A stretch of DNA of 64,000 nucleotides from Curvularia clavata (taxonomy: Eukaryota), in contig CP089274.1 in the NCBI GenBank assembly GCA_023920165.1, positions 124,001 to 188,000 on the forward strand. Direction: 5' to 3'. The notes beneath the pieces are model-generated. The model saw only the letters and a list, made by a program, of their open reading frames with translations. It made no database searches and was not told the DNA's origin. The stretch's first letter is position 1. Each line of letters starts with the position of its first letter. Both the position numbers and the translations under genes were made by a program. Below are positions 22,200 to 61,408 of the stretch, in pieces.

Positions 22200-23585
22200 C
22201 TCCATATTACGCTATTCATTTAATAATATCTTTACTACTCGTCAATGACTCCTATTCCTACAACTTGTCGTTATAACTCTTACTCTCGCTATCCTTATTC
22301 TTATCCTAAACAATCCTACGAGTATTGATTTTCCACAGATTCCATTGAAATTGTTTAGCGTTTTGCCTTGATCCACCTTAGAACTCCATTTCACTCCCCA
22401 AAGCGCCAAATCCTCTCTGTAAAATCGGCGCATAGAACGGTTGCACTGATGCTGGCCATCTAGTGATTGGCTTGATCTGAGAAAACAGGTCAAAAGCACA
22501 AGTGCATCTGGACCGAATAAAAGTGTGATAGCAGCACACAGTACAAAAATCTTTGCCAGGCTCCTTCACACATTTGTTGCTGCCAATTCTGAGAACGCAT
22601 ATATCGCACTTCTTTCGCCAACTCTATCTGTACTTCTCCATTACGTCATCTAGAAGATTGAGGGGTAATATCTATGTGAAAGAGGTATAGAGAATCGTAG
22701 CCAACGTGACCAAATATCTAGCGTGGTTACCTTATAATTTACTAGATACTAGTATCTTAAAGCTATATAGATATAAGGCGTGAGCTTTCTAGACATATTA
22801 GTTTAAGACTTAATTTCTAGAGGAAATAATTAATATAGACTTTAGGGACGTTTATTAGAAACTCCGCGTATATTTTATATTAATTTAAATTTTATTTATT
22901 AGAGGTATCTTTCCCTAGACGTAGCCTTTCTAATAGAACTCAATGTTGAAGTAATAGGTGGCTGCTAGTACTACTAGTAGTAGACTTAGACAGCCTGATC
23001 GAGAGACTCTAGATAGACGAGAGATTGCTAGGGGAGAGAGTTGATGGACACGATTGACTTTGTATAAACTGCTCTGGTTTCTATCTACTAGCTATTCTAC
23101 TACTATATATATTGGCTGGAGTAGATTCTAGAAGAATCTATCTAGTAGTAGCTTGCGTAATCTTTAGCGTCATAGACAGATGTCTATAGATCGATTATAG
23201 TCTTGACAGATCGACTATAGACTAAGTTGATTCTGGGTGTAGAAGTACGCACCCAGATACTGTAGATTAGCTGACTAGCTTAGATCTACAACACTCAAGT
23301 CTATTAGAATTCTAATATCGTTAGAGGTAATGACCCCGGATATCTATAGGGCGATCTCGAAGACTAAGTTGCTATAGTCTAGCATAGACTGGTAAACGGG
23401 TATTGACCCACTTTTCTTCTTTCATCAATATCTCATCAAAGACTAGTCCAAATCGAGTAATTCTGACGTCATTTTAATGCCCTAAGCTAGCGCATTCTAT
23501 CATGTAATATAAAGCTAAGCCGTATCTAGCTTAGTTTAAAAGTTATTTAATAGCCCGTTTGTGAGCCCTAGGGCTGGGTTATGAG
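22200..23585. other. AT-rich RIP-degenerate region (left part of the TE island)
   Basis: Strong TpA excess and no long ORFs; hosts solo LTR A. Confidence 0.6.
22944..23293 (+). mobile_element. Solo LTR A (350 bp) of a second LTR-retrotransposon family
   Basis: TGTTG...CAACA termini with a 5-bp TSD CTCAA on both sides (22939-43 and 23294-98); TATA-like TATATATA near 23104. Confidence 0.9.
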
Positions 23586-23614
23586 TGTAACCATGCATAG
23601 ACCAAAACATACCC
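23586..23614 (+). repeat. 29-bp extra copy of the Gypsy LTR 5' end, immediately before the copy-1 LTR
   Basis: TGTAACCATGCATAGACCAAAACATACCC at 23586-23614 is repeated at 23615-23643. Confidence 0.9.
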
Positions 23615-24180
23615 TGTAACCATGCATAGACCAAAACATACCCCAGCCAGGGCAGCTTATCAAGATCCGATTGAGAGCCGGGTCAGACCCGATGAAGACC
23701 CGCACCCAGGTATAAGTACCAGGTACCTTCCATAGATGTTCGGTAGATTTTTGATATCCTTTCGTACCAGGCCTATGAGTGTCTACCGAATCCAAGGTGT
23801 TTCTGCTGTCCCACGCACTTCCATATGCATTTGAGTGACACTTCCCACCGGAACCGATTCGACTAGTCTTGCTCGCGCCGTTACATTATATCAAAAATCT
23901 CGTCCCAGCCGGTGACGGCCTTCAAAACAATATCGCAGCTTGTTTGTTGAGACCGCGCCCAAGCCCAAGTCCCTCCGGAACCGCTCCGGATACTTCACAC
24001 CGTTACGTCCCACATTCACACACAGGCGGGATCCCTTCGATCTCCCGCCGACCGAAGCCTTTGGGTTTGGACCTCCTGTACTGATTGCAGTCAGGTTAAC
24101 TTCGGAGAAGTCGCGTAGATTGCGCCAAGGTAGAGACTCGGAGACTACCAAAAACCCATCAGCCACGAAGACAACCGTCG

Positions 24181-25371
24181 ATGGCTGACCGAACCCCATC
24201 CGGCTCAGGAGAGCTTTCCAGGAAGTCGCCGCGCTTCCAAGATTCGAAGTCAAGAGAGAAGACGCCTGGCAAACCGCCAGCCGTCGAAGAGGAAGAGGAT
24301 TCGGAAGAGGATGAGACTAGCCTCCTTCGGGCAGAGATCGACAGGCTAAACGAACAAATCGCACGGCTGTCCCGCCAAAACACCGCAGCCCCAGATCAAC
24401 CTCTCCCCTCCACCGAATCACCACCGACTATCGCTGAACCAACCGAAACTCAATTCGGAAGGTACCAGTCAGCAACCCCGGACCTGCTACGTGTCAAACT
24501 CACAGAACGTACCCCTTCCATTGATAACCTTAGTGATGGAACAGAACCTACGTTCCGCCAATGGCAAGCGTCAATAGAGGACCGCTTAACAATCAACGCG
24601 GACCATTATCGGAGTGAACGCGCACGCATGGCTCTAGTCTGGGGACATACTACAGGTATCGCCAAGGGATACCTGGAACCACAGTACCTAGCCGATTCGG
24701 TGGAGGACCGGTTCCAAAACGCCGAAGATATGATAGCTACTCTAAAATCATACTTCGTATCCGGCAACGAGCAAGCGGAAAGCCGCGCTGCTTTCCACCG
24801 CTTGCTCATGGACAAAAAGGAAACCTTCGCTGAATTTAAGGCAAAATTTATAAGTGCTGCCGTCAAAGGATCCGTATCGAAGTCGGAGTGGTTTTTCTAC
24901 TTATGGGAAAAAATTACCCCCGCCTTGCGTGTTCCAAACTTGGGATTTAAACACCAGTGGAACAACTCCTTTGACAAGATGATACAACACCTTACTGCCT
25001 TCGATACCGAAAGAAGGAACACTCCTTTCGGACACGGTTCGGAACCCACTTCCAATAATTCTCGTACTCCACCAACGAAGCCCCGCGTCAGTCAATACCG
25101 GGACTACCGCCCAAACACTTATGGAGTCCGATCCGAACCAGCTCCGACCCAATCTCGCGCTCATTCTAATACCCCCAGGTTCCCTTCAAAGACCCCCGCA
25201 CTGGATAGCAAACCGACTACTAGCAATTGCTATAACTGCGGAAAACCTGGACATTATGCGAATGAGTGCCCCATTCCTCGGGTTCGAGAAATCGAAGCAG
25301 AGAAGGAAGAATTCGAAGAAGCACACGAATACTTATCGGAGGAGGACCGGGCGGGAAACCACCAGGCCTAG
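24181..25371 (+). CDS. gag: Gag with CCHC zinc knuckle (copy 1)
   Basis: 396-aa ORF with CYNCGKPGHYANEC. Confidence 0.95.
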   Translation: MADRTPSGSGELSRKSPRFQDSKSREKTPGKPPAVEEEEDSEEDETSLLRAEIDRLNEQIARLSRQNTAAPDQPLPSTESPPTIAEPTETQFGRYQSATPDLLRVKLTERTPSIDNLSDGTEPTFRQWQASIEDRLTINADHYRSERARMALVWGHTTGIAKGYLEPQYLADSVEDRFQNAEDMIATLKSYFVSGNEQAESRAAFHRLLMDKKETFAEFKAKFISAAVKGSVSKSEWFFYLWEKITPALRVPNLGFKHQWNNSFDKMIQHLTAFDTERRNTPFGHGSEPTSNNSRTPPTKPRVSQYRDYRPNTYGVRSEPAPTQSRAHSNTPRFPSKTPALDSKPTTSNCYNCGKPGHYANECPIPRVREIEAEKEEFEEAHEYLSEEDRAGNHQA

Positions 25372-28300
25372 GAAAACTCTCCGCCCTAGGCATGAACAAG
25401 TACGATCTAGCTAAAATTGATTTATCCCACTTGTTCGGAGGAAAACACTTCCTAGTACCCACCGTTCTTTGTTCGAAAGGGTTTGGTGTCAGCTTGCACT
25501 CCTTAGTTGACACTGGAGCCCAAGGCTTTTTATTCTTAAATTCTGCTATTGCTCGTACCCTCTCCGGCTCCCTTCAGGTCCCCATCCGAAGACTTCCCTT
25601 CAAGATCACAGTCAAAGGATTTCAGGACCAAGTCCAAACTAGGGTAGACAAATATATTCGGTTACATATCCGAATCGATGGAAGAAAGATTTACAACTGT
25701 CCCTTCGTGATCATGGATCTAGGGACACAGGACTGCATAATTGGAATCAAGTGGTTAAGACGTTTCCAGCTTAGGCTTGATACGAGCCGGAACCGGATCG
25801 TATGGCCGGCCAAGTACCCTCCAACATATGATCCCGCGCCACCTATCCTTGTACAGTTGAAACAACCTTCCATCGATGCTGATGTGGAACGGGACATACA
25901 GAGGCGAGACGCACTATGGGAAAAGGACAACTACCGTAGGCAAAACAGTCCTCGCAAAGCTCTCATGCGAAGAATTAGAGGATGCCTCAAACTTCCCAAG
26001 GTTCGTCTACCACTACCTGTTCCCGACCCTACTCCGGACCCTATCCGACCAACATCTTCACCCCGTATCGCCATCATTTCGGCAAATGCTTTCCATTATT
26101 CTATGAAGCGTAAGGAAAACGAGTTCTTCACGACAAGTATCTATGAGATCGATCGCATCTTAGAAGAGCGCATGAAGCCAGACGATCCCGAAAACGCCAA
26201 ACTTGTTCGGGACCGACTTCCATCCGCTTACCATTCGTACCGCGATGTCTTCAGCAAGACAGCGGCAGAGCTACTGCCCGAACATCGCCCATACGATCAT
26301 AAGATTGTGCTGACCGAACCTCTTCCGAATCAATTCAGTCCTCTGTACAAGCAGAGCACTGAAGAACTCGAAGCCACCAAGACGTTCGTAATGGAAAACC
26401 TTAGGAAAGGACACATTGACCCAAGCCACTGCCCCTTCGCCTCCCCAGTCCTTTGTGTTCGGAAGCCAAACGGAGACATTCGCATCTGTGTAGATTACCG
26501 CCGACTCAACGCAATCACCAGAAAGGATGCGTATCCGATACCACGCATTGACGAGCTTCTAGCCCGCACCCACAAGGCGAAAATCTTCACCAAGCTCGAC
26601 ATACGTGCGGCATTCAACAAGATCCGAATGCACCCCGACTCGGAGGAGTACACCACGTTCCGCACTAGATACGGAACCTACAAGTCCAAAGTGTTGCCTT
26701 TTGGATTATGCAACGGCCCTGCAACATATCAACGCTACATGAATGATGTGTTGATTGATTATCTAGACAGCTTCTGCATAGTCTACCTAGACGACATTTT
26801 GATCTACTCCGAATCGGAACCGGACCACCCCCGCCACGTACAACAGGTCTTGGAAAGGCTTAGGCAAGCCGGTCTCCAAGTTGACATCAAGAAAAGCGAA
26901 TTCCATGTCACTCGGACCAAATACCTAGGGTACATTTTGACCAACCAAGGTCTAGAGGTGGACCCTGACAAGGTGGAAGCCCTTCAAGATTGGGTCCGAC
27001 CTACCACCGTTACTGGTGTGAAGTCGTTCCTAGGGTTCACTGGGTTCTACAGGCAGTTCGTTCCTGAATACTCGCGAATTGCGAAACCTCTCCTCGCCCT
27101 CCAGAGCCCCTCAAGACCATTCGTATGGGATTCGGAGTGCGACCAAGCCTTTGAAAGGTTAAAATCTGCACTGCTGGCAATTCCCACCTTGTACCACTAC
27201 CATCCAGAGTATGATACCAAGGTGGAGACCGACGCGTCCGATGGCGTTGTGGCAGGCGTTCTTTCCCAAAAGCAGCCAAATGGAAATTGGTGTCCTGTAG
27301 CATTCTTCAGCAAGGTCCTATCCGGGTCTGAGCTGAACTGGGAAATACACGACAAAGAACTATTCGCCATCGTAACGGCGTTTAGCAAGTGGCGACCTGA
27401 ACTGCTGTCGGTACGCTCTCGTGTCGACGTGTACTCAGACCACCGTTCCCTTGAATACTTCATGACTACCAAAGTTCTGAATGCCCGCCAGGTGCGATGG
27501 GCGGAAGAGTTGGCATCCTTCAATTTCCACATCCGATACACCCCCGGAAAGGATAATGCTCGTGCTGACATCCTCTCCCGACGGGAGCAAGATGTGGGGA
27601 ATCTGAAGACAGCCCAAATTGACAACCGTTCGCGGGTCCTCCTGGGACCGCACCGACTTGACAACCGAATCAACTCCGAACTTGCTAAGACCTATGTAGC
27701 CCAACTCCAAGCGGAATCTTTCTCCTTACTTGTAGTTGAGCCCATATCGGAGCCGATGTCCCTCGATTCGCTGGAGCTGATCGAGTCTATCCTACAAGAG
27801 AACCGAGCCTCGTTTGGGGCAGAGCGAAGGTCCCTTCCGGACAGATACCGGATCGAAAACGGACTCCTGCTCTATTCCAACCGCCTATGCATTCCTTCCA
27901 CCTCTACCCTTGTGACTCGCCTCATTCGGGAAGTACACGACCAGGTATCCTCAGCGCACCCCAGTGCAAAGAAGACCTACCAACTACTGTCCCAGAAGTA
28001 CCACTGGAAGGGTATGGAATCCACCTGTAAAAGGTATGTGCGGAATTGCATAGCCTGTAGGAAGGCCCATCCTAGACAGACCCGAATTCCAGGGATGATT
28101 CATCCTTTGCCAATTCCTGACCGGCCGATGCAGCACCTGTGCATCGACTTTAAGGAATTTCCCCGAGACCGATCCGGTTACGACATGATCATGGTCGTGA
28201 TCGACCGGTTATCTAAGCAGGCCATCTCCATCCCCTGCCACAAGACTATTGATGCAAGGGGAATGGCCGACCTATTCGTTCAATGGGTGTACCGATTTGG

Positions 28301-29288
28301 CCACACACCTGAAACCATAGTCTCTGACCGAGGACCACAGTTCATTTCAAGCTTCTGGTCGGAATTCTGCCGAATCCTAGGCGTTAAGGTCAAGCTGTCA
28401 ACCGCCTACCACAAAGAAACGGATGGTCAGACAGAGATTATGAATAAGTACATCGATCAGAGGTTGCGCCCATTCGTATCCTACTACCAAGACAACTGGA
28501 GTGGACTTCTACCTTTGATCGATCGTGCTCAAATTTCCCTACCACATTCTTCCATTGGCATGTCCCCGTACCACATCCTATATGGTTCCGAACCCCGGCA
28601 GAGTTGGGACTGGAAACATTCCACCAGCCTTCTCACCCCCACTGACAAACTCAACCATAAGGATGCATTGGAAATGGCTACCCGCATGCACGACGCATGG
28701 AAGGTAGCTAAGGAACAAATGGAGAAAGCCCAGGACAGGATGCGAACCACAGTCAACCGCCATCGTCGTTCTGTTGACTGGGATGTGGGAGACATGGTCT
28801 TCCTAAGTACCCGGAACCTCGCGTCAGACCGTCCGAGTAGGAAGCTATCCTCCAAATGGGAGGGACCCTTCAGGGTACTTGAGAAGGTAGGACATTCATA
28901 CCGCTTGGACCTTCCGAAAAGGTCCCGGATCCATGATGTCTTCGCCCCGGATCTATTATGCAAAGATCCTCAAGACCCCCTCCCAGGACAAGAACCTCCA
29001 AAGCCCCCAGCAACTCCCATCCAAGGCGTGGAAGAATGGGAGGTAGAAGAAATCCTAGCAAGCAAGTTGTACCGCTCAAACCTAAAATACCAAGTACGGT
29101 GGGTCGGACATGACCCGGATCCTACCTGGTACCCAGCCTCAAACTTCATGGGAGCCCCACACAAGCTCAAACTCTTCCATGAACAACATCCCACCAAACC
29201 GGGACCCCCACGTTCCCTTGGCAAGTGGATCACGGCATGGGAACAAGGCACAGAGGATATGACTTCACTGCAGGATGACAAAATTTAA
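25266..29288 (+). CDS. pol: Pol polyprotein PR-RT-RH-IN-chromodomain (copy 1), probably expressed by -1 frameshift
   Basis: LVDTGA (protease), YLDD (RT), TDASD and HDKELFA (RNase H), H..H..C..C plus DDE core and GPF (integrase), WEVEEIL..YQVRWVGH..TWYP (chromodomain). Confidence 0.97.
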   Translation: MPHSSGSRNRSREGRIRRSTRILIGGGPGGKPPGLGKLSALGMNKYDLAKIDLSHLFGGKHFLVPTVLCSKGFGVSLHSLVDTGAQGFLFLNSAIARTLSGSLQVPIRRLPFKITVKGFQDQVQTRVDKYIRLHIRIDGRKIYNCPFVIMDLGTQDCIIGIKWLRRFQLRLDTSRNRIVWPAKYPPTYDPAPPILVQLKQPSIDADVERDIQRRDALWEKDNYRRQNSPRKALMRRIRGCLKLPKVRLPLPVPDPTPDPIRPTSSPRIAIISANAFHYSMKRKENEFFTTSIYEIDRILEERMKPDDPENAKLVRDRLPSAYHSYRDVFSKTAAELLPEHRPYDHKIVLTEPLPNQFSPLYKQSTEELEATKTFVMENLRKGHIDPSHCPFASPVLCVRKPNGDIRICVDYRRLNAITRKDAYPIPRIDELLARTHKAKIFTKLDIRAAFNKIRMHPDSEEYTTFRTRYGTYKSKVLPFGLCNGPATYQRYMNDVLIDYLDSFCIVYLDDILIYSESEPDHPRHVQQVLERLRQAGLQVDIKKSEFHVTRTKYLGYILTNQGLEVDPDKVEALQDWVRPTTVTGVKSFLGFTGFYRQFVPEYSRIAKPLLALQSPSRPFVWDSECDQAFERLKSALLAIPTLYHYHPEYDTKVETDASDGVVAGVLSQKQPNGNWCPVAFFSKVLSGSELNWEIHDKELFAIVTAFSKWRPELLSVRSRVDVYSDHRSLEYFMTTKVLNARQVRWAEELASFNFHIRYTPGKDNARADILSRREQDVGNLKTAQIDNRSRVLLGPHRLDNRINSELAKTYVAQLQAESFSLLVVEPISEPMSLDSLELIESILQENRASFGAERRSLPDRYRIENGLLLYSNRLCIPSTSTLVTRLIREVHDQVSSAHPSAKKTYQLLSQKYHWKGMESTCKRYVRNCIACRKAHPRQTRIPGMIHPLPIPDRPMQHLCIDFKEFPRDRSGYDMIMVVIDRLSKQAISIPCHKTIDARGMADLFVQWVYRFGHTPETIVSDRGPQFISSFWSEFCRILGVKVKLSTAYHKETDGQTEIMNKYIDQRLRPFVSYYQDNWSGLLPLIDRAQISLPHSSIGMSPYHILYGSEPRQSWDWKHSTSLLTPTDKLNHKDALEMATRMHDAWKVAKEQMEKAQDRMRTTVNRHRRSVDWDVGDMVFLSTRNLASDRPSRKLSSKWEGPFRVLEKVGHSYRLDLPKRSRIHDVFAPDLLCKDPQDPLPGQEPPKPPATPIQGVEEWEVEEILASKLYRSNLKYQVRWVGHDPDPTWYPASNFMGAPHKLKLFHEQHPTKPGPPRSLGKWITAWEQGTEDMTSLQDDKI

Positions 29289-29386
29289 AGAAAAGGAAAA
29301 ACAGAAACTTCATTGGGTATCAGTAACAAAGGAAACTCGGACCCGAACCCCACAACCACCAACAAACCCCCAAAATGTCACCTCAC

Positions 29387-30054
29387 TCAAAGTTCAACAT
29401 CAGAGCGCTCCTGCTCAGCGTCGGCCATCTCCTGGTCAACCGCACCCTTGTCCTCCTCTGAGGAGGAGGACAAACCAGACCATTCCTCCGACTCCTCGAC
29501 CCGAGGGCCGACCCGGGCGCCACCCCGAGCCGACCTGGCCTCAAGACGCGAAAGGCGCCTTTCCATGCCATTGACTGTATCGACCAACTCCGAGATGCTG
29601 TCTCGGATGTCCCTCAGGACCTGGTTCTGGGCGACGAGGAGCTGATTGACTGAAAGCTCCTTCTCCTGGGACCTGACAACTTGGACCTTGCGGGCGATGT
29701 CCAAAGCGGCGGCAGCGATTCGATCAAGCAATACCTCCGTATCGGCATCAACTGCAGGGCCATACCGAGCGATGGCACACAACTCGATGGCATCGATCAA
29801 ATCGTGAAACTCCTCGAAGACGTACTCGGGAACCTATCCGGGTTAGCCAAGCTGCAAACAGTGAAGGAAAAGAGAAGCAAACTTACAGGATCGCACTTCT
29901 CCTTCTGCTGGGTGCAATAAAGACACTTCTTGGAGGAATCGGACGGGTAGGCGTAAGCAATGTCGAACTGACGGCGCGCCAAGGCGCGGACAGCTCGCAG
30001 ACAGATGAAGCGATACGCATCCGGCAGCGCACCGGGCGGACAACGAAGAGGCAT
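29387..30054 (-). CDS. Antisense, intron-containing accessory ORF of the retrotransposon (copy 1), about 204 aa
   Basis: ATG at 30054, exon 1 30054-29887, intron 29886-29834 (GTAAGT..CTAAC..TAG, phase 0), exon 2 29833-29387 in frame. Contains KCLYCTQQKEKCDPVP, a coiled coil and an acidic tail. Confidence 0.75.
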
Positions 30055-30889
30055 AGCGAAAACGAGTGCGTTGAGTTGTAATTGACTTGTTTTGATTGAG
30101 AAGCGTGGAGGAGAAAACTCGGCGGCGACACTGTGTTGTTGTTGATATACACACTGGGGGAGCAAACAGTCTTGGCACACGTGACCTGGATAGCCGTTGG
30201 ACCCTGACTACAAACGAATCGCCGGCGACTCGGAGCTCCGATCGAAGCGTCCAGGCCTGTCTGGCAGGTGAAGGCAAACGGCCTAGCGGCCAGGCAGCAA
30301 GGCAGCAGCGCCACGTGAGTACCGGAATGGTCACTGAGGCTCAGGCACAGAGGCTCAAGTGAAGGACATGCACGGCCACGGGAGCCACACCGGAACCGGA
30401 GCATCCTATTGCCCGAAGTGGCGCAGTGTGGGGAAAATCTGGGGGAAATCAGGAACGAGGGACCCCATGGTGCAGGGAAGAAGAATGACAACCGGAACAG
30501 ACAGCTGTGGGACCAGCTGTCTACCGGGAGGGGGGGTAATGTAACCATGCATAGACCAAAACATACCCCAGCCAGGGCAGCTTATCAAGATCCGATTGAG
30601 AGCCGGGTCAGACCCGATGAAGACCCGCACCCAGGTATAAGTACCAGGTACCTTCCATAGATGTTCGGTAGATTTTTGATATCCTTTCGTACCAGGCCTA
30701 TGAGTGTCTACCGAATCCAAGGTGTTTCTGCTGTCCCACGCACTTCCATATGCATTTGAGTGACACTTCCCACCGGAACCGATTCGACTAGTCTTGCTCG
30801 CGCCGTTACAACTTTATATATTATCTATAGAATATTAAACAAATTCTTTACGGATATAGCAATACTTAAATCCGCTAGAAAGGGCCTCC

Positions 30890-31236
30890 TGTTGTAGATA
30901 AGCTACTCAGCTACTCTACGACAGAATTCGGGTGCTCAGTCACACCCGGATTCTACAATCTATAGTCGATCTGTCAAGACTATAATCGATCTATAGACAT
31001 CTGTCTATGACGCTAAAGATTACGCAAGCTACTACTAGATAGATTCTTCTAGAATCTACTCCAGCCAATATATATAGTAGTAGAATAGCTAGTAGATAGA
31101 AACCAGAGCAGTTTATACAAAGTCAATCGTGTCCATCAACTCTCTCCCCTAGCAATCTCTCGTCTATCTAGAGTCTCTCGATCAGGCTGTCTAAGTCTAC
31201 TACTAGTAGTACTAGCAGCCACCTATTACTTCAACA
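30890..31236 (-). mobile_element. Solo LTR B (347 bp), same family as solo LTR A, inverted
   Basis: TGTTG...CAACA termini with TSD CCTCC (30885-89 and 31237-41). 30959-31236 is the exact reverse complement of 22944-23221. Confidence 0.9.
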
Positions 31237-31241
31237 CCTCC

Positions 31242-31849
31242 TATTTAATTCTAAAAATCTATAACATAGCACGTTCCTAATCTTAAAATATATCTATTAT
31301 AGATAGTATACAAGCTAATATTAGGTGCCGCTTTCCGTCTAGACGCACTTTAAAGACTAACTCTATCCTATCTCCCTCTCTAGAAAGATCCTCTCTATTA
31401 GAAGAGGTTAGGGAGCAGACAGACAAGCTAATATCATAGCTTTAACCTAGTCTCTTAGAAAGATAGATTATAAATATATACTTAATCTCTTTAAATATCT
31501 AATTAGCCCTAGAGAGTTTACTTAAGTAGATAAAACCCTATAAAACGCAGTTATAGAGGTTATTCTCCTTAGGTGCAAAGATATCTTGTCGAATCTATAG
31601 TAGGTATTTATAGTCAAAACTATTATAGTTTATTTTATTATAGTTTGTAAAGTTGTTGTCTAACTTATTATTTGTACCTTCCATTTTAAAGTCGCGCTAT
31701 GCTATCCCAGTATCTATATATTTTATAGTCATATCAAGTTCTAACTTGTTATTAGGTTTTCGTACTTCACTTGATAGGAATAGTGGCGGCTTAAGCAAAA
31801 AAAACTATATAGTTTGTTGGCAACATAATTAGTATATATTAACTTAGGT
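31242..31849. other. AT-rich RIP-degenerate spacer (continues at 39051-about 39650 after copy 2)
   Basis: TpA-rich and ORF-free; split by the copy-2 insertion (TSD TAGGT). Confidence 0.6.
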
Positions 31850-32415
31850 TGTAACCATGCATAGACCAAAACATACCCCAGCCAGGGCAGCTTATCAAGA
31901 TCCGATTGAGAGCCGGGTCAGACCCGATGAAGACCCGCACCCAGGTATAAGTACCAGGTACCTTCCATAGATGTTCGGTAGATTTTTGATATCCTTTCGT
32001 ACCAGGCCTATGAGTGTCTACCGAATCCAAGGTGTTTCTGCTGTCCCACGCACTTCCATATGCATTTGAGTGACACTTCCCACCGGAACCGATTCGACTA
32101 GTCTTGCTCGCGCCGTTACATTATATCAAAAATCTCGTCCCAGCCGGTGACGGCCTTCAAAACAATATCGCAGCTTGTTTGTTGAGACCGCGCCCAAGCC
32201 CAAGTCCCTCCGGAACCGCTCCGGATACTTCACACCGTTACGTCCCACATTCACACACAGGCGGGATCCCTTCGATCTCCCGCCGACCGAAGCCTTTGGG
32301 TTTGGACCTCCTGTACTGATTGCAGTCAGGTTAACTTCGGAGAAGTCGCGTAGATTGCGCCAAGGTAGAGACTCGGAGACTACCAAAAACCCATCAGCCA
32401 CGAAGACAACCGTCG

Positions 32416-33606
32416 ATGGCTGACCGAACCCCATCCGGCTCAGGAGAGCTTTCCAGGAAGTCGCCGCGCTTCCAAGATTCGAAGTCAAGAGAGAAGACGC
32501 CTGGCAAACCGCCAGCCGTCGAAGAGGAAGAGGATTCGGAAGAGGATGAGACTAGCCTCCTTCGGGCAGAGATCGACAGGCTAAACGAACAAATCGCACG
32601 GCTGTCCCGCCAAAACACCGCAGCCCCAGATCAACCTCTCCCCTCCACCGAATCACCACCGACTATCGCTGAACCAACCGAAACTCAATTCGGAAGGTAC
32701 CAGTCAGCAACCCCGGACCTGCTACGTGTCAAACTCACAGAACGTACCCCTTCCATTGATAACCTTAGTGATGGAACAGAACCTACGTTCCGCCAATGGC
32801 AAGCGTCAATAGAGGACCGCTTAACAATCAATGCGGACCATTATCGGAGTGAACGCGCACGCATGGCTCTAGTCTGGGGACATACTACAGGTATCGCCAA
32901 GGGATACCTGGAACCACAGTACCTAGCCGATTCGGTGGAGGACCGGTTCCAAAACGCCGAAGATATGATAGCTACTCTAAAATCATACTTCGTATCCGGC
33001 AACGAGCAAGCGGAAAGCCGCGCTGCTTTCCACCGCTTGCTCATGGACAAAAAGGAAACCTTCGCTGAATTTAAGGCAAAATTTATAAGTGCTGCCGTCA
33101 AAGGATCCGTATCGAAGTCGGAGTGGTTTTTCTACTTATGGGAAAAAATTACCCCCGCCTTGCGTGTTCCAAACTTGGGATTTAAACACCAGTGGAACAA
33201 CTCCTTTGACAAGATGATACAACACCTTACTGCCTTCGATACCGAAAGAAGGAACACTCCTTTCGGACACGGTTCGGAACCCACTTCCAATAATTCTCGT
33301 ACTCCACCAACGAAGCCCCGCGTCAGTCAATACCGGGACTACCGCCCAAACACTTATGGAGTCCGATCCGAACCAGCTCCGACCCAATCTCGCGCTCATT
33401 CTAATACCCCCAGGTTCCCTTCAAAGACCCCCGCACTGGATAGCAAACCGACTACTAGCAATTGCTATAACTGCGGAAAACCTGGACATTATGCGAATGA
33501 GTGCCCCATTCCTCGGGTTCGAGAAATCGAAGCAGAGAAGGAAGAATTCGAAGAAGCACACGAATACTTATCGGAGGAGGACCGGGCGGGAAACCACCAG
33601 GCCTAG
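32416..33606 (+). CDS. gag: Gag (copy 2)
   Basis: Protein identical to copy 1. Confidence 0.95.
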   Translation: MADRTPSGSGELSRKSPRFQDSKSREKTPGKPPAVEEEEDSEEDETSLLRAEIDRLNEQIARLSRQNTAAPDQPLPSTESPPTIAEPTETQFGRYQSATPDLLRVKLTERTPSIDNLSDGTEPTFRQWQASIEDRLTINADHYRSERARMALVWGHTTGIAKGYLEPQYLADSVEDRFQNAEDMIATLKSYFVSGNEQAESRAAFHRLLMDKKETFAEFKAKFISAAVKGSVSKSEWFFYLWEKITPALRVPNLGFKHQWNNSFDKMIQHLTAFDTERRNTPFGHGSEPTSNNSRTPPTKPRVSQYRDYRPNTYGVRSEPAPTQSRAHSNTPRFPSKTPALDSKPTTSNCYNCGKPGHYANECPIPRVREIEAEKEEFEEAHEYLSEEDRAGNHQA

Positions 33607-36600
33607 GAAAACTCTCCGCCCTAGGCATGAACAAGTACGATCTAGCTAAAATTGATTTATCCCACTTGTTCGGAGGAAAACACTTCCTAGTACCCACCGT
33701 TCTTTGTTCGAAAGGGTTTGGTGTCAGCTTGCACTCCTTAGTTGACACTGGAGCCCAAGGCTTTTTATTCTTAAATTCTGCTATTGCTCGTACCCTCTCC
33801 GGCTCCCTTCAGGTCCCCATCCGAAGACTTCCCTTCAAGATCACAGTCAAAGGATTTCAGGACCAAGTCCAAACTAGGGTAGACAAATATATTCGGTTAC
33901 ATATCCGAATCGATGGAAGAAAGATTTACAACTGTCCCTTCGTGATCATGGATCTAGGGACACAGGACTGCATAATTGGAATCAAGTGGTTAAGACGTTT
34001 CCAGCTTAGGCTTGATACGAGCCGGAACCGGATCGTATGGCCGGCCAAGTACCCTCCAACATATGATCCCGCGCCACCTATCCTTGTACAGTTGAAACAA
34101 CCTTCCATCGATGCTGATGTGGAACGGGACATACAGAGGCGAGACGCACTATGGGAAAAGGACAACTACCGTAGGCAAAACAGTCCTCGCAAAGCTCTCA
34201 TGCGAAGAATTAGAGGATGCCTCAAACTTCCCAAGGTTCGTCTACCACTACCTGTTCCCGACCCTACTCCGGACCCTATCCGACCAACATCTTCACCCCG
34301 TATCGCCATCATTTCGGCAAATGCTTTCCATTATTCTATGAAGCGTAAGGAAAACGAGTTCTTCACGACAAGTATCTATGAGATCGATCGCATCTTAGAA
34401 GAGCGCATGAAGCCAGACGATCCCGAAAACGCCAAACTTGTTCGGGACCGACTTCCATCCGCTTACCATTCGTACCGCGATGTCTTCAGCAAGACAGCGG
34501 CAGAGCTACTGCCCGAACATCGCCCATACGATCATAAGATTGTGCTGACCGAACCTCTTCCGAATCAATTCAGTCCTCTGTACAAGCAGAGCACTGAAGA
34601 ACTCGAAGCCACCAAGACGTTCGTAATGGAAAACCTTAGGAAAGGACACATTGACCCAAGCCACTGCCCCTTCGCCTCCCCAGTCCTTTGTGTTCGGAAG
34701 CCAAACGGAGACATTCGCATCTGTGTAGATTACCGCCGACTCAACGCAATCACCAGAAAGGATGCGTATCCGATACCACGCATTGACGAGCTTCTAGCCC
34801 GCACCCACAAGGCGAAAATCTTCACCAAGCTCGACATACGTGCGGCATTCAACAAGATCCGAATGCACCCCGACTCGGAGGAGTACACCACGTTCCGCAC
34901 TAGATACGGAACCTACAAGTCCAAAGTGTTGCCTTTTGGATTATGCAACGGCCCTGCAACATATCAACGCTACATGAATGATGTGTTGATTGATTATCTA
35001 GACAGCTTCTGCATAGTCTACCTAGACGACATTTTGATCTACTCCGAATCGGAACCGGACCACCCCCGCCACGTACAACAGGTCTTGGAAAGGCTTAGGC
35101 AAGCCGGTCTCCAAGTTGACATCAAGAAAAGCGAATTCCATGTCACTCGGACCAAATACCTAGGGTACATTTTGACCAACCAAGGTCTAGAGGTGGACCC
35201 TGACAAGGTGGAAGCCCTTCAAGATTGGGTCCGACCTACCACCGTTACTGGTGTGAAGTCGTTCCTAGGGTTCACTGGGTTCTACAGGCAGTTCGTTCCT
35301 GAATACTCGCGAATTGCGAAACCTCTCCTCGCCCTCCAGAGCCCCTCAAGACCATTCGTATGGGATTCGGAGTGCGACCAAGCCTTTGAAAGGTTAAAAT
35401 CTGCACTGCTGGCAATTCCCACCTTGTACCACTACCATCCAGAGTATGATACCAAGGTGGAGACCGACGCGTCCGATGGCGTTGTGGCAGGCGTTCTTTC
35501 CCAAAAGCAGCCAAATGGAAATTGGTGTCCTGTAGCATTCTTCAGCAAGGTCCTATCCGGGTCTGAGCTGAACTGGGAAATACACGACAAAGAACTATTC
35601 GCCATCGTAACGGCGTTTAGCAAGTGGCGACCTGAACTGCTGTCGGTACGCTCTCGTGTCGACGTGTACTCAGACCACCGTTCCCTTGAATACTTCATGA
35701 CTACCAAAGTTCTGAATGCCCGCCAGGTGCGATGGGCGGAAGAGTTGGCATCCTTCAATTTCCACATCCGATACACCCCCGGAAAGGATAATGCTCGTGC
35801 TGACATCCTCTCCCGACGGGAGCAAGATGTGGGGAATCTGAAGACAGCCCAAATTGACAACCGTTCGCGGGTCCTCCTGGGACCGCACCGACTTGACAAC
35901 CGAATCAACTCCGAACTTGCTAAGACCTATGTAGCCCAACTCCAAGCGGAATCTTTCTCCTTACTTGTAGTTGAGCCCATATCGGAGCCGATGTCCCTCG
36001 ATTCGCTGGAGCTGATCGAGTCTATCCTACAAGAGAACCGAGCCTCGTTTGGGGCAGAGCGAAGGTCCCTTCCGGACAGATACCGGATCGAAAACGGACT
36101 CCTGCTCTATTCCAACCGCCTATGCATTCCTTCCACCTCTACCCTTGTGACTCGCCTCATTCGGGAAGTACACGACCAGGTATCCTCAGCGCACCCCAGT
36201 GCAAAGAAGACCTACCAACTACTGTCCCAGAAGTACCACTGGAAGGGTATGGAATCCACCTGTAAAAGGTATGTGCGGAATTGCATAGCCTGTAGGAAGG
36301 CCCATCCTAGACAGACCCGAATTCCAGGGATGATTCATCCTTTGCCAATTCCTGACCGGCCGATGCAGCACCTGTGCATCGACTTTAAGGAATTTCCCCG
36401 AGACCGATCCGGTTACGACATGATCATGGTCGTGATCGACCGGTTATCTAAGCAGGCCATCTCCATCCCCTGCCACAAGACTATTGATGCAAGGGGAATG
36501 GCCGACCTATTCGTTCAATGGGTGTACCGATTTGGCCACACACCTGAAACCATAGTCTCTGACCGAGGACCACAGTTCATTTCAAGCTTCTGGTCGGAAT

Positions 36601-37523
36601 TCTGCCGAATCCTAGGCGTTAAGGTCAAGCTGTCAACCGCCTACCACAAAGAAACGGATGGTCAGACAGAGATTATGAATAAGTACATCGATCAGAGGTT
36701 GCGCCCATTCGTATCCTACTACCAAGACAACTGGAGTGGACTTCTACCTTTGATCGATCGTGCTCAAATTTCCCTACCACATTCTTCCATTGGCATGTCC
36801 CCGTACCACATCCTATATGGTTCCGAACCCCGGCAGAGTTGGGACTGGAAACATTCCACCAGCCTTCTCACCCCCACTGACAAACTCAACCATAAGGATG
36901 CATTGGAAATGGCTACCCGCATGCACGACGCATGGAAGGTAGCTAAGGAACAAATGGAGAAAGCCCAGGACAGGATGCGAACCACAGTCAACCGCCATCG
37001 TCGTTCTGTTGACTGGGATGTGGGAGACATGGTCTTCCTAAGTACCCGGAACCTCGCGTCAGACCGTCCGAGTAGGAAGCTATCCTCCAAATGGGAGGGA
37101 CCCTTCAGGGTACTTGAGAAGGTAGGACATTCATACCGCTTGGACCTTCCGAAAAGGTCCCGGATCCATGATGTCTTCGCCCCGGATCTATTATGCAAAG
37201 ATCCTCAAGACCCCCTCCCAGGACAAGAACCTCCAAAGCCCCCAGCAACTCCCATCCAAGGCGTGGAAGAATGGGAGGTAGAAGAAATCCTAGCAAGCAA
37301 GTTGTACCGCTCAAACCTAAAATACCAAGTACGGTGGGTCGGACATGACCCGGATCCTACCTGGTACCCAGCCTCAAACTTCATGGGAGCCCCACACAAG
37401 CTCAAACTCTTCCATGAACAACATCCCACCAAACCGGGACCCCCACGTTCCCTTGGCAAGTGGATCACGGCATGGGAACAAGGCACAGAGGATATGACTT
37501 CACTGCAGGATGACAAAATTTAA
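33501..37523 (+). CDS. pol: Pol polyprotein with chromodomain (copy 2)
   Basis: Protein identical to copy 1. Confidence 0.97.
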   Translation: MPHSSGSRNRSREGRIRRSTRILIGGGPGGKPPGLGKLSALGMNKYDLAKIDLSHLFGGKHFLVPTVLCSKGFGVSLHSLVDTGAQGFLFLNSAIARTLSGSLQVPIRRLPFKITVKGFQDQVQTRVDKYIRLHIRIDGRKIYNCPFVIMDLGTQDCIIGIKWLRRFQLRLDTSRNRIVWPAKYPPTYDPAPPILVQLKQPSIDADVERDIQRRDALWEKDNYRRQNSPRKALMRRIRGCLKLPKVRLPLPVPDPTPDPIRPTSSPRIAIISANAFHYSMKRKENEFFTTSIYEIDRILEERMKPDDPENAKLVRDRLPSAYHSYRDVFSKTAAELLPEHRPYDHKIVLTEPLPNQFSPLYKQSTEELEATKTFVMENLRKGHIDPSHCPFASPVLCVRKPNGDIRICVDYRRLNAITRKDAYPIPRIDELLARTHKAKIFTKLDIRAAFNKIRMHPDSEEYTTFRTRYGTYKSKVLPFGLCNGPATYQRYMNDVLIDYLDSFCIVYLDDILIYSESEPDHPRHVQQVLERLRQAGLQVDIKKSEFHVTRTKYLGYILTNQGLEVDPDKVEALQDWVRPTTVTGVKSFLGFTGFYRQFVPEYSRIAKPLLALQSPSRPFVWDSECDQAFERLKSALLAIPTLYHYHPEYDTKVETDASDGVVAGVLSQKQPNGNWCPVAFFSKVLSGSELNWEIHDKELFAIVTAFSKWRPELLSVRSRVDVYSDHRSLEYFMTTKVLNARQVRWAEELASFNFHIRYTPGKDNARADILSRREQDVGNLKTAQIDNRSRVLLGPHRLDNRINSELAKTYVAQLQAESFSLLVVEPISEPMSLDSLELIESILQENRASFGAERRSLPDRYRIENGLLLYSNRLCIPSTSTLVTRLIREVHDQVSSAHPSAKKTYQLLSQKYHWKGMESTCKRYVRNCIACRKAHPRQTRIPGMIHPLPIPDRPMQHLCIDFKEFPRDRSGYDMIMVVIDRLSKQAISIPCHKTIDARGMADLFVQWVYRFGHTPETIVSDRGPQFISSFWSEFCRILGVKVKLSTAYHKETDGQTEIMNKYIDQRLRPFVSYYQDNWSGLLPLIDRAQISLPHSSIGMSPYHILYGSEPRQSWDWKHSTSLLTPTDKLNHKDALEMATRMHDAWKVAKEQMEKAQDRMRTTVNRHRRSVDWDVGDMVFLSTRNLASDRPSRKLSSKWEGPFRVLEKVGHSYRLDLPKRSRIHDVFAPDLLCKDPQDPLPGQEPPKPPATPIQGVEEWEVEEILASKLYRSNLKYQVRWVGHDPDPTWYPASNFMGAPHKLKLFHEQHPTKPGPPRSLGKWITAWEQGTEDMTSLQDDKI

Positions 37524-37621
37524 AGAAAAGGAAAAACAGAAACTTCATTGGGTATCAGTAACAAAGGAAACTCGGACCCGAACCCCACAACCACCAACAA
37601 ACCCCCAAAATGTCACCTCAC

Positions 37622-38289
37622 TCAAAGTTCAACATCAGAGCGCTCCTGCTCAGCGTCGGCCATCTCCTGGTCAACCGCACCCTTGTCCTCCTCTGAGGAG
37701 GAGGACAAACCAGACCATTCCTCCGACTCCTCGACCCGAGGGCCGACCCGGGCGCCACCCCGAGCCGACCTGGCCTCAAGACGCGAAAGGCGCCTTTCCA
37801 TGCCATTGACTGTATCGACCAACTCCGAGATGCTGTCTCGGATGTCCCTCAGGACCTGGTTCTGGGCGACGAGGAGCTGATTGACTGAAAGCTCCTTCTC
37901 CTGGGACCTGACAACTTGGACCTTGCGGGCGATGTCCAAAGCGGCGGCAGCGATTCGATCAAGCAATACCTCCGTATCGGCATCAACTGCAGGGCCATAC
38001 CGAGCGATGGCACACAACTCGATGGCATCGATCAAATCGTGAAACTCCTCGAAGACGTACTCGGGAACCTATCCGGGTTAGCCAAGCTGCAAACAGTGAA
38101 GGAAAAGAGAAGCAAACTTACAGGATCGCACTTCTCCTTCTGCTGGGTGCAATAAAGACACTTCTTGGAGGAATCGGACGGGTAGGCGTAAGCAATGTCG
38201 AACTGACGGCGCGCCAAGGCGCGGACAGCTCGCAGACAGATGAAGCGATACGCATCCGGCAGCGCACCGGGCGGACAACGAAGAGGCAT
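37622..38289 (-). CDS. Antisense spliced accessory ORF (copy 2)
   Basis: Same as copy 1; intron 38069-38121. Confidence 0.75.
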
Positions 38290-40630
38290 AGCGAAAACGA
38301 GTGCGTTGAGTTGTAATTGACTTGTTTTGATTGAGAAGCGTGGAGGAGAAAACTCGGCGGCGACACTGTGTTGTTGTTGATATACACACTGGGGGAGCAA
38401 ACAGTCTTGGCACACGTGACCTGGATAGCCGTTGGACCCTGACTACAAACGAATCGCCGGCGACTCGGAGCTCCGATCGAAGCGTCCAGGCCTGTCTGGC
38501 AGGTGAAGGCAAACGGCCTAGCGGCCAGGCAGCAAGGCAGCAGCGCCACGTGAGTACCGGAATGGTCACTGAGGCTCAGGCACAGAGGCTCAAGTGAAGG
38601 ACATGCACGGCCACGGGAGCCACACCGGAACCGGAGCATCCTATTGCCCGAAGTGGCGCAGTGTGGGGAAAATCTGGGGGAAATCAGGAACGAGGGACCC
38701 CATGGTGCAGGGAAGAAGAATGACAACCGGAACAGACAGCTGTGGGACCAGCTGTCTACCGGGAGGGGGGGTAATGTAACCATGCATAGACCAAAACATA
38801 CCCCAGCCAGGGCAGCTTATCAAGATCCGATTGAGAGCCGGGTCAGACCCGATGAAGACCCGCACCCAGGTATAAGTACCAGGTACCTTCCATAGATGTT
38901 CGGTAGATTTTTGATATCCTTTCGTACCAGGCCTATGAGTGTCTACCGAATCCAAGGTGTTTCTGCTGTCCCACGCACTTCCATATGCATTTGAGTGACA
39001 CTTCCCACCGGAACCGATTCGACTAGTCTTGCTCGCGCCGTTACATAGGTAGCATTCCGAGAAGCCACGCATGCTTTTTTATATTCTCTTTATCTTCAAT
39101 TCCCATTATATCTTGTTTGTAACGGCTTCTGAAAGCTTATAATCTGCCAATATAGATCTCAGCGCTACTATTAGATTGCCGTACTATATATATATAGATG
39201 CCGCTAAGTAGAGTCCACTCACTAGAGATTGCTAGCGCATTCTTATGCAGCTCAGATACATGAAACTCCGGATTGTTAAGTATATCAGTAAGTCTAGCCT
39301 TAGCACTACCTTCGTAAAATGTCTACGTATCTCGCTTCGTGAAAAATTTTCTAGATATGCTTTCAATAGACTCGTGAATAAGACAATAAACTGGCTGCCT
39401 TTCTACTAGTTACTTCGTACTATCCCTCCCTATAACCCGAAAAACCCCCTATACAGAAAAACAATAAGGGTACTTACACTTCAGGTAAAATTAACGCTGT
39501 ACATATATTAAATTTTACTTATCTTGCGCCAGAAATGCATAATATAAGTATTTATTTATGTCGCTGTGTCGTTATTAGTAAAATATACAGACATCCTCCC
39601 ACCTTTGTAGCTTGCTAAATAAATAGTCTCCGTATACAGCATGCAAGTGATCAACGTCTATAGCATCATAGCGAGACTCTAATTGCTCATACCAGCAAGC
39701 ATTCTGTTTCCTTTGAGCCTTAGTCCCTGATCACAGAAAATCGATCTCGTATTGGCCCTAGTGCTGCTGTACCATGCGCGATCATGCATCATCGCCACCC
39801 CTGGTCGGTACTTGCATGACACTTGAAACCAAAATTGGCTAGCTTGAAACAGCCCCGCGTTGCTTACGTGCGATCAAAACTGCGTAATTTACTATTTGCC
39901 ATTAACCAATATTGCTTTCCTCGTGGCTGTGCTTCGAACTGTCAGCAAATGACACTAAGCATTTCTCATGTACAGTAACTGTTCAATCTAAGTACTGGCG
40001 ATTTGTTCCGCTACGGCGGTTGTTCCGTTGCGGGAGGATGCACGTTAGGACTTATGTTGTTATTTTCTATGGTAATAAGAGATCTTAATGCTAATCCTGA
40101 AATTGCTCAAATTAACGTTTCCGTCCTAGTAACAGGCTATCTCTTATTTCGTATGTTCTCTGAAGGAGTTGCTCTTCATTTTTCTCTTCATACCAATGCG
40201 CATCCTCAAGCTCAAAGCGTATATCTTCAAACTCCGGAACCTCCATAAACGCTTGGAGAAAGCGAGAAAACTCGACCTCGTGTATTTGACCCATTGATAC
40301 CTCTTCCGTGAATATCTTCGTCGCAAGGCTACGGAACTATTTGAGACCAAGAACACTCAACTTGACTCGGCAATGCATACGTGGTGTTGGGCGAGTTCTG
40401 CCACATATTTGTAAGAGCCTTCGCCATAACATAGCGGCAACGTGCGTACATATACATCTCTCGCATAGTGATGTACCACCACGAGAACAATTAAGAAACA
40501 AGCGTGGTCTAGTCCCCTACTTCCTGCCCACTTTATGGTGTATGGGCTAAAACAATATGAGGTGTTACGGACAGGTCGACCCATTTCAATGCACGAGGCG
40601 GAGGCAAGTACCAACATTAGTTAACATGCC

Positions 40631-41956: not shown

Positions 41957-42434
41957 GATCAAGGACGAAATTGCGTTGAACCTGAAGTGAGTGGTCTGTC
42001 GACTAGGCTTCAAGAGCAGCTGAAAACACCAAAGGTAAGCCCGAATAGCCTTGCAGCGCGCACCGCCGGAAGCATTCTCGCTGACAGCAGAAGCGCACCG
42101 GTCAGCTATTCCTAAAGGCTCTTCAACAAGGATGTCGCGTCGTGTCTCATGGCCATTGGGCCCTCGTGGCGACCTCGCATACGATTTCTTCGGTTGTCGA
42201 GGCTCATTGCCAACCAGAGCGTGAGCAGGTCGGCTTGTGCAGCAAGCTGCATGTGGGCGCCGGACGGGAATCAGCGATCTCGTACCGCCCCGTCACGTCG
42301 TCCCCTCCAATGCTCTCTGATCTAAACGCGGACGTTGAAGGCCGCTGAAGCTTAGTCTTCGCGATTTCGCAACTTCATCAACTCCACAGCGTTGCGCTCC
42401 TGCCAAATTCACTCGTTCCGACTATCTATCCACC

Positions 42435-58697: not shown

Positions 58698-59559
58698 AGC
58701 GACAGGTGATGAATCTGAAATGACAGGGTGGGTATTGCATTTATGCCATTGACAGCCATGTCAAAACAGGCGCAATGGTCTTCGTAGTTGACATGGGGAA
58801 TGAGGCAAGTGCTTGAACGATGATTCGGTATATCGTATCATCCCGCCAATAGTAAGCAACTAGTTAGCTCAGGGGCCTCAATTGTCACGATCGGGTTTTC
58901 GGGGGATTACCAGCGCGAGGCGGGGAAACTGGGGTATCCGGGTGGTGGCGCAAGTGGGTAGGTTACCTGTCTTGGAACGCGTGCGCTTGTGGCTTTCTCG
59001 TACTACATATGGTGGGAACACGAGCATTTTAAAGTCAAGCGGCTTCCGTCAGGTTCACGACAGAAAATCAGAAAGCTTAACAAATGCATAGCAAAAGATG
59101 AATAATTCAGCAGAGCATGAAGACGTGCAACCGAGGTTGTAGTTGGGTCTAGGATCGCACGGCACCTCTTCCGAACAGATGCTGGGAAACCATCGGAACG
59201 GTTCCGATGCCGCCCACGGCTCTCGCTTTCTTGTTACTCCAAGAGCCGCACAAACGCAACGACTGTGACAAACGATGAACATCCCTTTAGGCAAGCCGAA
59301 GTGCCGAGCTCTACGTGATAACAGCCATAGGCTAGAGGCTCTTGAACCCAACACGCTACCGAATATGGCAGGAGCGACTGCAGCCAAGGGCAACTCTCTT
59401 GGCAAGTACTTCAACAGGCAAAAAGCGCGTCTTGACTGACGTATCGCCTATCGTCTAGAGTGAGTGAACAAACGAAAAGCGTAGAAAATAAGATGTTGGG
59501 ACGCGCCAATTGCATTTCTGCGTCTCTGTCCCGAATCTCCAAGTGATACAACTCAGAGA

Positions 59560-61210: not shown

Positions 61211-61408
61211 GCATACAGGCAGTTGGCATCCAAGGGAACTTGAGTAAGAGATACATGAATGTGGATTCTAATAGGTTGGTCTTGATATCAACATGTGCGT
61301 GAGAACATGTCGTCATCAAGAGTATCTAAAGGATAGAGGCCTTGAATATTATAAACATGATCACCGTGCATTAGTTGTTTGGTGACCTCGACAAGAATGC
61401 ATGCAAGT

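Follow-up and report, generated by a model that had tools for sequence, protein, structure and literature searches.

Retrotransposons with long terminal repeats (LTRs) are usually viewed as gag-pol machines, and accessory genes as a hallmark of complex retroviruses. Human T-cell leukaemia virus type 1 (HTLV-1), a vertebrate retrovirus, has an antisense gene for the bZIP protein HBZ, which is driven by a promoter inside the 3' LTR. Retroviral antisense accessory genes of this kind are reviewed in PMC10186651. In plants, antisense genes termed aORF-3R (aORF, additional open reading frame) are exemplified by maize Grande gene23, rice RIRE2, Silene Retand TRP28 (PF04195) and Phaseolus PvRetro13. 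Gene23 is transcribed from a promoter of its own and its product is a nuclear protein, and DNA binding has been predicted for TRP28 (PMC7264820, PMC11963269). In fungi, the gene brtn has an antisense orientation and is situated between pol and the 3' LTR in Boty, an element of Botrytis/Sclerotinia (Zhao et al. 2011, Virology 417:248, as cited in PMC7264820, PMC8365987 and PMC4227169). The gag-pol of Boty carries a CHROMO domain (PMC4227169), and brtn is missing from the latest annotation of strain B05.10 (PMC8365987). A further antisense gene of this kind is described here for a chromovirus of Curvularia clavata. It was found in a window of 64,000 nucleotides (contig CP089274.1 of assembly GCA_023920165.1, positions 124,001 to 188,000 of the forward strand), to which all coordinates refer; the window harbours two copies of the element.

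In copy 1, a two-exon gene on the minus strand sits between the pol stop (29288) and the 3' LTR (30540), opposite to gag-pol. It spans 29387-30054, with its ATG at 30054-30052, within a spacer of 1251 nt. The stop codons of the antisense gene and of pol are 98 nt apart, and the coding regions do not overlap. The length of the intron, 53 nt, is not a multiple of three, so splicing is required to keep the frame. The spliced product comprises 204 aa, including KCLYCTQQKEKCDPVP and LLVAQNQVLRDIRDSISELVDTVNGMERRLSRLE, and the gene in copy 2 yields an identical protein. The leader is CA/CT-rich and contains a TATA-like GTATAT some 95 nt upstream from the start codon. The original prediction, which had been made from the letters of the window alone, had described this gene accurately in its coordinates, splice signals, product length, peptides and leader with GTATAT near 30150, and had placed the same gene in copy 2 at 37622-38289 and recognised the host as an intact chromovirus.

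Like the plant aORF-3R genes, the window gene lies between pol and the 3' LTR, runs antisense and is conserved across copies; its position, strand and conservation under coding constraint are among the features by which aORF-3R genes are recognised. No PF04195 or Smc match was seen among the 55 family members described below, nor any sequence relation to the plant aORFs. The post-pol region measures 1.25 kb here, compared with 2.9-6.6 kb in Retand. The word 'intron' does not occur in PMC7264820 or PMC11963269, so that conservation of a spliceosomal intron may set the family of the window gene apart. Boty and the window element are both Gypsy elements of Pezizomycotina with a CHROMO domain and an extra antisense gene between pol and the 3' LTR. 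The original prediction had rightly pointed to antisense ORFs in plant Gypsy lineages, and its remark that they are poorly characterised in fungi needs to be qualified by the precedent of brtn. The window gene is a new or barely described case, and the kind of gene, an antisense gene between pol and the 3' LTR, is already known. HBZ shares with the window gene the antisense position near the 3' end of a retroelement and is a helical regulatory protein, but it has no sequence or fold relation to the window protein, for whose whole model a search of BFVD gave no match at E ≤ 1e-3.

A phmmer search with the 204-aa query against 1.84 billion representative proteins (E ≤ 1e-3) gave 55 matches, 16 of them at E ≤ 1e-10. 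The homologues share the starting Met-Pro, and the alignment continues through the exon junction. Named members belong to the Pleosporales (Bipolaris victoriae, B. maydis, Clathrospora, Polyplosphaeria, Plenodomus and Didymella) and to the Leotiomycetes (Stipitochalara, Cadophora, Diplocarpon rosae, D. coronariae and Pseudogymnoascus destructans). Dispersed, near-identical paralogues occur in Plenodomus lindquistii (four accessions), D. rosae (five), P. destructans (several) and C. clavata (seven). The gene had been expected to escape automated annotation of transposable elements, and for gene annotation such an expectation is wrong: the identical 204-aa, two-exon model (P0059) is deposited under four C. 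clavata accessions as 'uncharacterized protein', not linked to a transposon. A further entry (P0003) differs from the window protein by one residue and has six C. clavata accessions in its 90% cluster. The seventh accession (P0004) represents a second subfamily, a paralogue of 178 aa with 95% identity, in which Cys18 is replaced by Tyr and whose predicted model is short of 26 residues after the exon junction; this copy is probably in decay. No relatives were found in IMG/VR, and word-indexed protein searches added little (two matches in one, at least seven in another and the query only in a third). The nearest clusters in the ESM Atlas are unnamed Ascomycota proteins (scores 0.90, 0.89 and 0.88); the best named cluster (0.87) has no common family, and DUF3716 is present in 28% of one cluster (0.76), all of which are leads only. 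Searches of the literature brought up no account of the protein family, of its intron or of the cysteine module.

A metagenome scan yielded six loci (L001-L006), of which L001-L004 are one locus at 99.9% identity, so that three independent lineages are available. In two of these three (L005 and L006), the antisense gene is intact and convergent, tail to tail, with a related chromovirus pol. The pol of L005 is 74% identical to that of the window over 284 aa and that of L006 78% over 912 aa, whereas the accessory proteins share 38-39% identity with the window protein. The accessory protein evolves much faster than pol, yet it is intact, in the same place and in the same orientation. Such different identities at the same arrangement imply that the two genes have long travelled together. 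The gene is therefore conserved both between the identical window copies and in related elements, and the original view of a third, antisense, splicing-dependent element gene holds for L005 and L006 as well. The third lineage, represented by L002 (7001-7540), carries a stand-alone intact homologue with an intron, encoding 159 aa.

The intron is shared by all four lineages seen as DNA. In the window, L002, L005 and L006, a phase-0 intron of 53, 51, 54 and 47 nt, respectively, follows the same Pro codon, and the signals GT[AC]AGT, CT[AGT]AC and YAG are kept, while the remaining intron sequence has diverged. Unspliced reading leads to stops or a frameshift in these lineages; spliced reading gives open frames of 204, 159, 215 and 189 aa. 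The motif C-x2-C-x6-C-x-P is found in 44 of the 55 protein members. It is followed by a conserved [VIL]P in 19 of them and by an unrelated stretch beginning with V, mostly 'VS', in the other 25, as expected where a gene predictor has read through GTNAGT. Since the read-through members include proteins with six cysteines (see below), comparison of the sequences suggests that the intron site is probably common to the four-cysteine and six-cysteine clades. Further upstream, the window, L006 and L005 share a T[GA][TA]ATAT-like motif in a weak alignment of four diverged sequences. In the same region, L005 (~200-329) and L006 (~1560-1670) show a GTACGT...CTGAT..TAG-like stretch upstream of the ATG, absent from the window, which might be a candidate intron of the 5' untranslated region, given the same weak alignment.

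The composition of the two exons and the substitutions between lineages are those of a coding sequence. GC content by codon position is 0.66/0.43/0.68 in the two-exon reading and 0.685/0.396/0.685 in exon 2 alone, a coding type like that of gag and pol; the other ORFs of the spacer do not have this pattern. The proportion of nonsynonymous differences (pN, 0.27-0.46) is lower than that of synonymous differences (pS, 0.60-0.77) in six of six pairs of DNA-resolved genes, and in all six the differences lie mostly at third codon positions. The ratio of the nonsynonymous to the synonymous rate (dN/dS) is 0.11-0.38 in the five pairs with finite dS, ratios that are rough, as dS is near saturation. A dN/dS near 1 with frameshifts and stops in related elements had been named as part of the outcome that would speak against a functional gene; the ratios lie below 1, and the frames are open in the related lineages. 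Taken together, homologues, codon composition, the conserved intron site and purifying selection argue that the two-exon gene is real, and that it is an element-borne, protein-coding gene can be held with high confidence.

The way in which such a gene would work can be outlined as follows. Within the 1.25 kb that separate pol from the 3' LTR, the element has a third gene of its own on the opposite strand. A promoter within the 485 nt between the ATG and the 3' LTR presumably drives an antisense mRNA, which would be spliced once and translated. Splice signals are strand-specific: genomic RNA in sense orientation retains the intron of an antisense gene and passes it on to each new insertion, and antisense-intron retrotransposition reporters rest on the same principle. 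Owing to the antisense orientation, the 53-nt intron would survive each round of retrotransposition, only the antisense pre-mRNA being spliced. The strand specificity of the splice signals thus explains why both freshly transposed copies retain the intron.

The product is predicted to have three parts: a basic module at the N terminus (about 58 aa) with four near-invariant cysteines, most likely forming one zinc site; about 100 residues of long helices; and a disordered tail rich in Ser, Asp and Glu. The four cysteines (C18, C44, C47 and C54) are present in 48-49 of the 55 members, most of the others being fragments without this region. The tail is acidic, as had been noted, with 14 Asp and Glu against four Lys and Arg in the last 44 residues. 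An AlphaFold2 model built from the 55-sequence alignment has a mean predicted local distance difference test (pLDDT) score of 81.7 and shows a small N-terminal domain, helices at 59-80, 88-113 and 118-159, and a tail of low confidence; the N-terminal domain modelled alone reaches 82.7. Two extra cysteines, at positions 21 and 34, occur in 19 of the 55 members, giving C-x2-C-x12-C-x9-C-x2-C-x6-C. These six-cysteine proteins include the members traced to Leotiomycetes, among them those of P. destructans, Stipitochalara and D. coronariae. The window protein is of the four-cysteine type and has CLRA where its six-cysteine relatives have CLRC. In this respect the original reading of a partial cluster, 'CLRA' followed by C-x2-C-x6-C, was perceptive, as the Leotiomycete relatives have CLRC and a further cysteine, six in total.

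The canonical spacing of the Gal4-type Zn(2)Cys(6) cluster (PF00172) is C-x2-C-x6-C-x5-12-C-x2-C-x6-8-C. The window protein resembles this class in its K/Q-rich C-x2-C-x6-C stretch followed by helices and an acidic tail, but it has C18 and then C44-x2-C47-x6-C54, four cysteines instead of six, and the spacing of the six-cysteine relatives (x2, x12, x9, x2, x6) also differs from the canonical one. Three P. destructans members are labelled 'Zn(2)-C6 fungal-type domain-containing protein' in UniRef. In an exhaustive VIA-align comparison, only two of 48,161 chains reached Z ≥ 2 with the N-terminal domain, and the first of them is the Gal4 zinc-cluster domain, a weak match. All this considered, the domain probably binds zinc and may be a zinc cluster in divergent or degenerate form. 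At the level of sequence it is not a demonstrable member of PF00172, as neither the profile nor the canonical six-cysteine spacing fits. Searches with the whole protein brought nothing specific, and the fold check proposed at the outset gave a confident helical model with the weak Gal4 match of the N-terminal domain as its only lead. None of the 55 members matched a Pfam family beyond noise. A sequence search of the PDB returned helical or coiled-coil noise only (best E 0.0011, a designed helical repeat), and the profile of the N-terminal domain had one match there (PacI, E 4.2). Foldseek found nothing in the PDB for the whole model at E ≤ 1e-3, and a wide VIA-align search with it gave generic helical hairpins only, at residues 57-116 (best Z 7.6).

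A cysteine-rich basic head, long helices and an acidic tail suggest a zinc-dependent nucleic-acid or chromatin binder. The protein is most likely an accessory factor of this type that would tune the expression or silencing of its own element, a role comparable to those of the antisense accessory genes of plant elements and retroviruses. As a whole, the view that the locus is the element's own antisense gene for a regulatory accessory factor is on balance the best explanation, held with modest confidence; the specific mechanism by way of a regulatory zinc module is more tentative.

A number of points weigh against this explanation. The homologous 'proteins' are gene predictions, not observed proteins. 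Antisense transcription, splicing and translation are steps that we infer rather than observe. Logan contigs, which are strandless, were inspected for four runs (X1, X2, X3 and X12) out of 24 listed; they contained no splice joint, and of these runs only X2 is on record as RNA. The intron is crossed unspliced by three contigs (X1, 29068-30101; X2, 29799-30067; X12, 29801-30231), which may derive from DNA, from genomic RNA in sense or from pre-mRNA before splicing and are uninformative on splicing. The single coding difference seen in these data, 29573 G>A in X1, is synonymous. Zinc binding and the target of the protein are likewise what we infer from its layout: no member matched Pfam Zn_clus (PF00172) at E ≤ 1, nor did any of six six-cysteine members at E ≤ 10; HMMER filters may drop very weak matches. 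Foldseek found no match for the N-terminal domain at E ≤ 10, and its top neighbour in VIA-align, the Gal4 zinc cluster 1aw6, is a weak match (Z 2.7, root-mean-square deviation 3.4, 40 residues). A basic patch resembling a nuclear localisation signal is present in seven of the 17 members of at least 170 aa and absent from the window protein. With Zn_clus absent from all 55 members and the Gal4 lead this weak, the transcription-regulator reading of the original prediction was overstated and is no more than plausible. Genomic context is known for four members, none of them from Leotiomycetes, and at the L001-L004 locus the gene can exist outside an element. Finally, the length of the ORF alone is within chance: when the 1251 nt after pol were shuffled 500 times with dinucleotides preserved, the longest ORF had 156 aa on average, and in 263 of the shuffles it reached 149 aa.

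Instead of regulating the element, the encoded protein may act in its replication, as a nucleic-acid chaperone, as a cofactor of the particle or pre-integration complex, or as a nuclear-import or targeting adaptor for Gag or the integrase-chromodomain. This possibility draws on the same conservation and linkage. A small basic module with four cysteines and long helices, as modelled, would suit a binding adaptor equally well as a transcription factor, and a replication-side role has been raised for plant antisense aORFs too (PMC7264820). Gag, however, has a zinc knuckle of its own, and a replication cofactor is considered improbable.

The stand-alone gene of L002 raises the question of whether a host gene was captured by one chromovirus lineage and is carried as a passenger without a role for the element. 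The L002 gene is intact, contains the intron and has a host-like setting: no pol, gag or repeat lies within 7 kb of it (the same locus as L001, L003 and L004), and it adjoins ORFs of 503 and 398 aa of unknown nature and a DUF2293 gene. Whether homologues always sit antisense inside Gypsy elements had been named as a point to check; L005 and L006 have this arrangement, and L002 does not. A tree was computed from 26 rows, namely the four DNA-resolved genes and 22 longer or named proteins, short fragments being left out. It splits into a 12-row group with the Leotiomycete members and a 14-row group with the Pleosporales members, each with support of 100/99, and thereby also by cysteine type, the six-cysteine group holding the former and the four-cysteine group the latter. 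L002 is placed inside the Pleosporales group among the three element-borne copies, in an 11-row clade supported by 93/90, although the inner 10-row group has only 81/41. It shares 58% identity with L006, more than the 39% between L006 and the window copy. This nested position speaks for a derived copy, which may have been domesticated, rather than for a donor in the host, as far as four members of known context can tell. Capture of a mere passenger would also not account for the position, orientation and tail-to-tail spacing that are kept where pol differs by 22-26%, nor for the purifying selection that still acts on the element-borne copies. It is considered slightly more improbable than a role in replication.

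The functional product might also be the antisense RNA, which could form double-stranded RNA and small RNAs or cause transcriptional interference and so control copy number, the protein being secondary. The sequence of such a transcript would be complementary to that of the genomic RNA in its 3' part, and antisense non-coding regulation is known for other retroelements (PMC7264820). A role of the RNA alone leaves unexplained why pN is below pS in every pair, why differences accumulate at third positions, and why the start codon and the four cysteines are conserved; it also does not explain why the frames are open after splicing in all four lineages at 38-58% protein identity. RNA-level and protein roles are not mutually exclusive, and an RNA-only function is no likelier than the capture of a host gene and seems, if anything, slightly less so.

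A chance ORF or gene-prediction artefact in GC-rich spacer DNA, which the shuffled sequences and a longer junk ORF overlapping exon 1 might suggest, is effectively refuted by 55 homologues in two fungal classes, purifying selection, an intron position conserved amid diverged intron sequence and a confident model from the family alignment, and is very remote. The longer ORF on the minus strand (29883-30581, 232 codons stop to stop) overlaps exon 1 and extends into the LTR. It was rejected as a gene because its GC content by codon position (0.51/0.60/0.62) is of the non-coding type and its translation is of low complexity, rich in Ser, Pro, Leu and Cys. It is a trap for ORF-based annotation.

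The element that carries the antisense gene is an intact and very young chromovirus with LTRs, a gag zinc knuckle, protease, reverse transcriptase, RNase H and integrase domains, and a chromodomain (Table 1). According to a self-BLAST of the window, its two copies (23615-30810 and 31850-39045) have 7196 bp each and are 99.986% identical, the lone base difference being at 24597 inside gag (C in copy 1, T in copy 2). The two LTRs of each copy, 271 nt long, are 100% identical to each other and have the termini TGTAAC...GTTACA. The domain order in pol is protease, reverse transcriptase, RNase H, integrase, SH3 (Tf2-type) and C-terminal chromodomain. Pfam matches are RVT_1 (2.5e-39), RT_RNaseH (5e-30), Integrase_H2C2 (4.3e-17), rve (1.8e-15) and SH3_Tf2-1 (8.7e-13); the Chromo domain at residues 1258-1306 (24.0 bits, E 3.7e-5) is slightly below the Pfam cut-off of 25.1.

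Table 1. Features of the chromovirus copies and of the antisense gene (window coordinates).
Feature	Position	Strand	Basis or remark
Chromovirus copy 1, LTR-gag-pol-antisense gene-LTR	23615..30810	+	Self-BLAST vs 31850-39045
5' LTR, copy 1	23615..23885	+	271 nt, 100% identity with 30540-30810
gag, 396 aa, zf-CCHC	24181..25371	+	ORF list; PF00098 E 1.1e-7
pol, 1340 aa from stop to stop, in frame -1 with respect to gag	25266..29288	+	Pfam domains
Antisense exon 2, 148 codons + TGA	29387..29833	-	Long helices, acidic tail
Intron, 53 nt, phase 0, GTAAGT...CTAAC...TAG	29834..29886	-	Branch A 9 nt from 3' end
Antisense exon 1, 56 codons, ends ...KCDP	29887..30054	-	Cys-rich basic N-terminal module, C18 C44 C47 C54
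Leader of the antisense gene, presumably with its own promoter	30055..30539	-	TATA-like GTATAT 30150-30145
Polypurine tract GGGAGGGGGGG	30526..30536	+	Ends 3 nt ahead of 3' LTR
3' LTR, copy 1	30540..30810	+	Self-BLAST
Chromovirus copy 2, 5-bp duplication TAGGT at flanks	31850..39045	+	Self-BLAST, flank reading
Antisense gene, copy 2	37622..38289	-	Exon 2 37622-38068, intron 38069-38121, exon 1 38122-38289

A perfect 5-bp target-site duplication, TAGGT, is present on both sides of copy 2 (31835-31855 and 39040-39060). A matching duplication is absent at copy 1, which is flanked by TACCC and ACTTT (23600-23620 and 30805-30830); these unlike flanks suggest recombination or rearrangement involving copy 1 after insertion. 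Copy 1 is bracketed by an inverted repeat of 353 bp with 94% identity (22944-23293 and 30890-31236). The sequence that surrounds and separates the copies is rich in AT (GC 0.405 at 22-24 kb and 0.435 at 30-32 kb), abounds in TA/CTAG and resembles degraded repeat DNA, and both insertions lie inside this patch. Chromodomains may guide the integration of elements into heterochromatin, and the location of both copies would fit such targeting. A contig of run X3 passes from the end of the 3' LTR (30810) directly into the sequence behind the 5' LTR, and the metagenome contig L006 (1-5121) reads pol, accessory gene, LTR, gag. These joins represent either an LTR-collapsed assembly of a multicopy element or tandem or circular forms. 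Host genes beside the transposon patch (host stretches 40631-44772 and 57390-64000) include protein kinases (42751-44772 and 61409-62413), a BNR_4 repeat protein (57390-58760) and an M14 carboxypeptidase (59690-61210), and a GH30-like fragment is found nearby at 54673-55782.

How far the family reaches beyond the elements seen here depends in part on brtn, which is compared with the window gene here by its description. Among 30 family representatives whose names were looked up, neither Botrytis nor Sclerotinia is represented; other Leotiomycetes are present in the family. If brtn proves homologous, the same family would be seen in another class, and the reservation made at the outset, that the protein might be an already described ORF of a transposable element, may then apply. 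A far-reaching version of the regulatory reading, which is unlikely in its full form, would regard the genes as an ancient accessory family of Pezizomycotina chromoviruses with brtn as its Botrytis member. Their product would be a degenerate zinc-cluster DNA binder that recognises its own LTR or host heterochromatin and controls activity or silencing, and that was domesticated at least once, in L002.

In this lineage of fungal chromoviruses, an intron-containing antisense gene has been maintained by purifying selection in two classes of Ascomycota. The products of the family seen here are all deposited as 'hypothetical' or 'uncharacterized' and are counted as host genes; dispersed, near-identical proteins of this kind deserve flagging as transposon genes in annotation. 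The stand-alone copy of L002 is a possible case of domestication. The role of antisense accessory genes is equally a standing question for the plant aORFs and for brtn, and a very young element with a small protein and four mutable cysteines provides a tractable system in which to address it.

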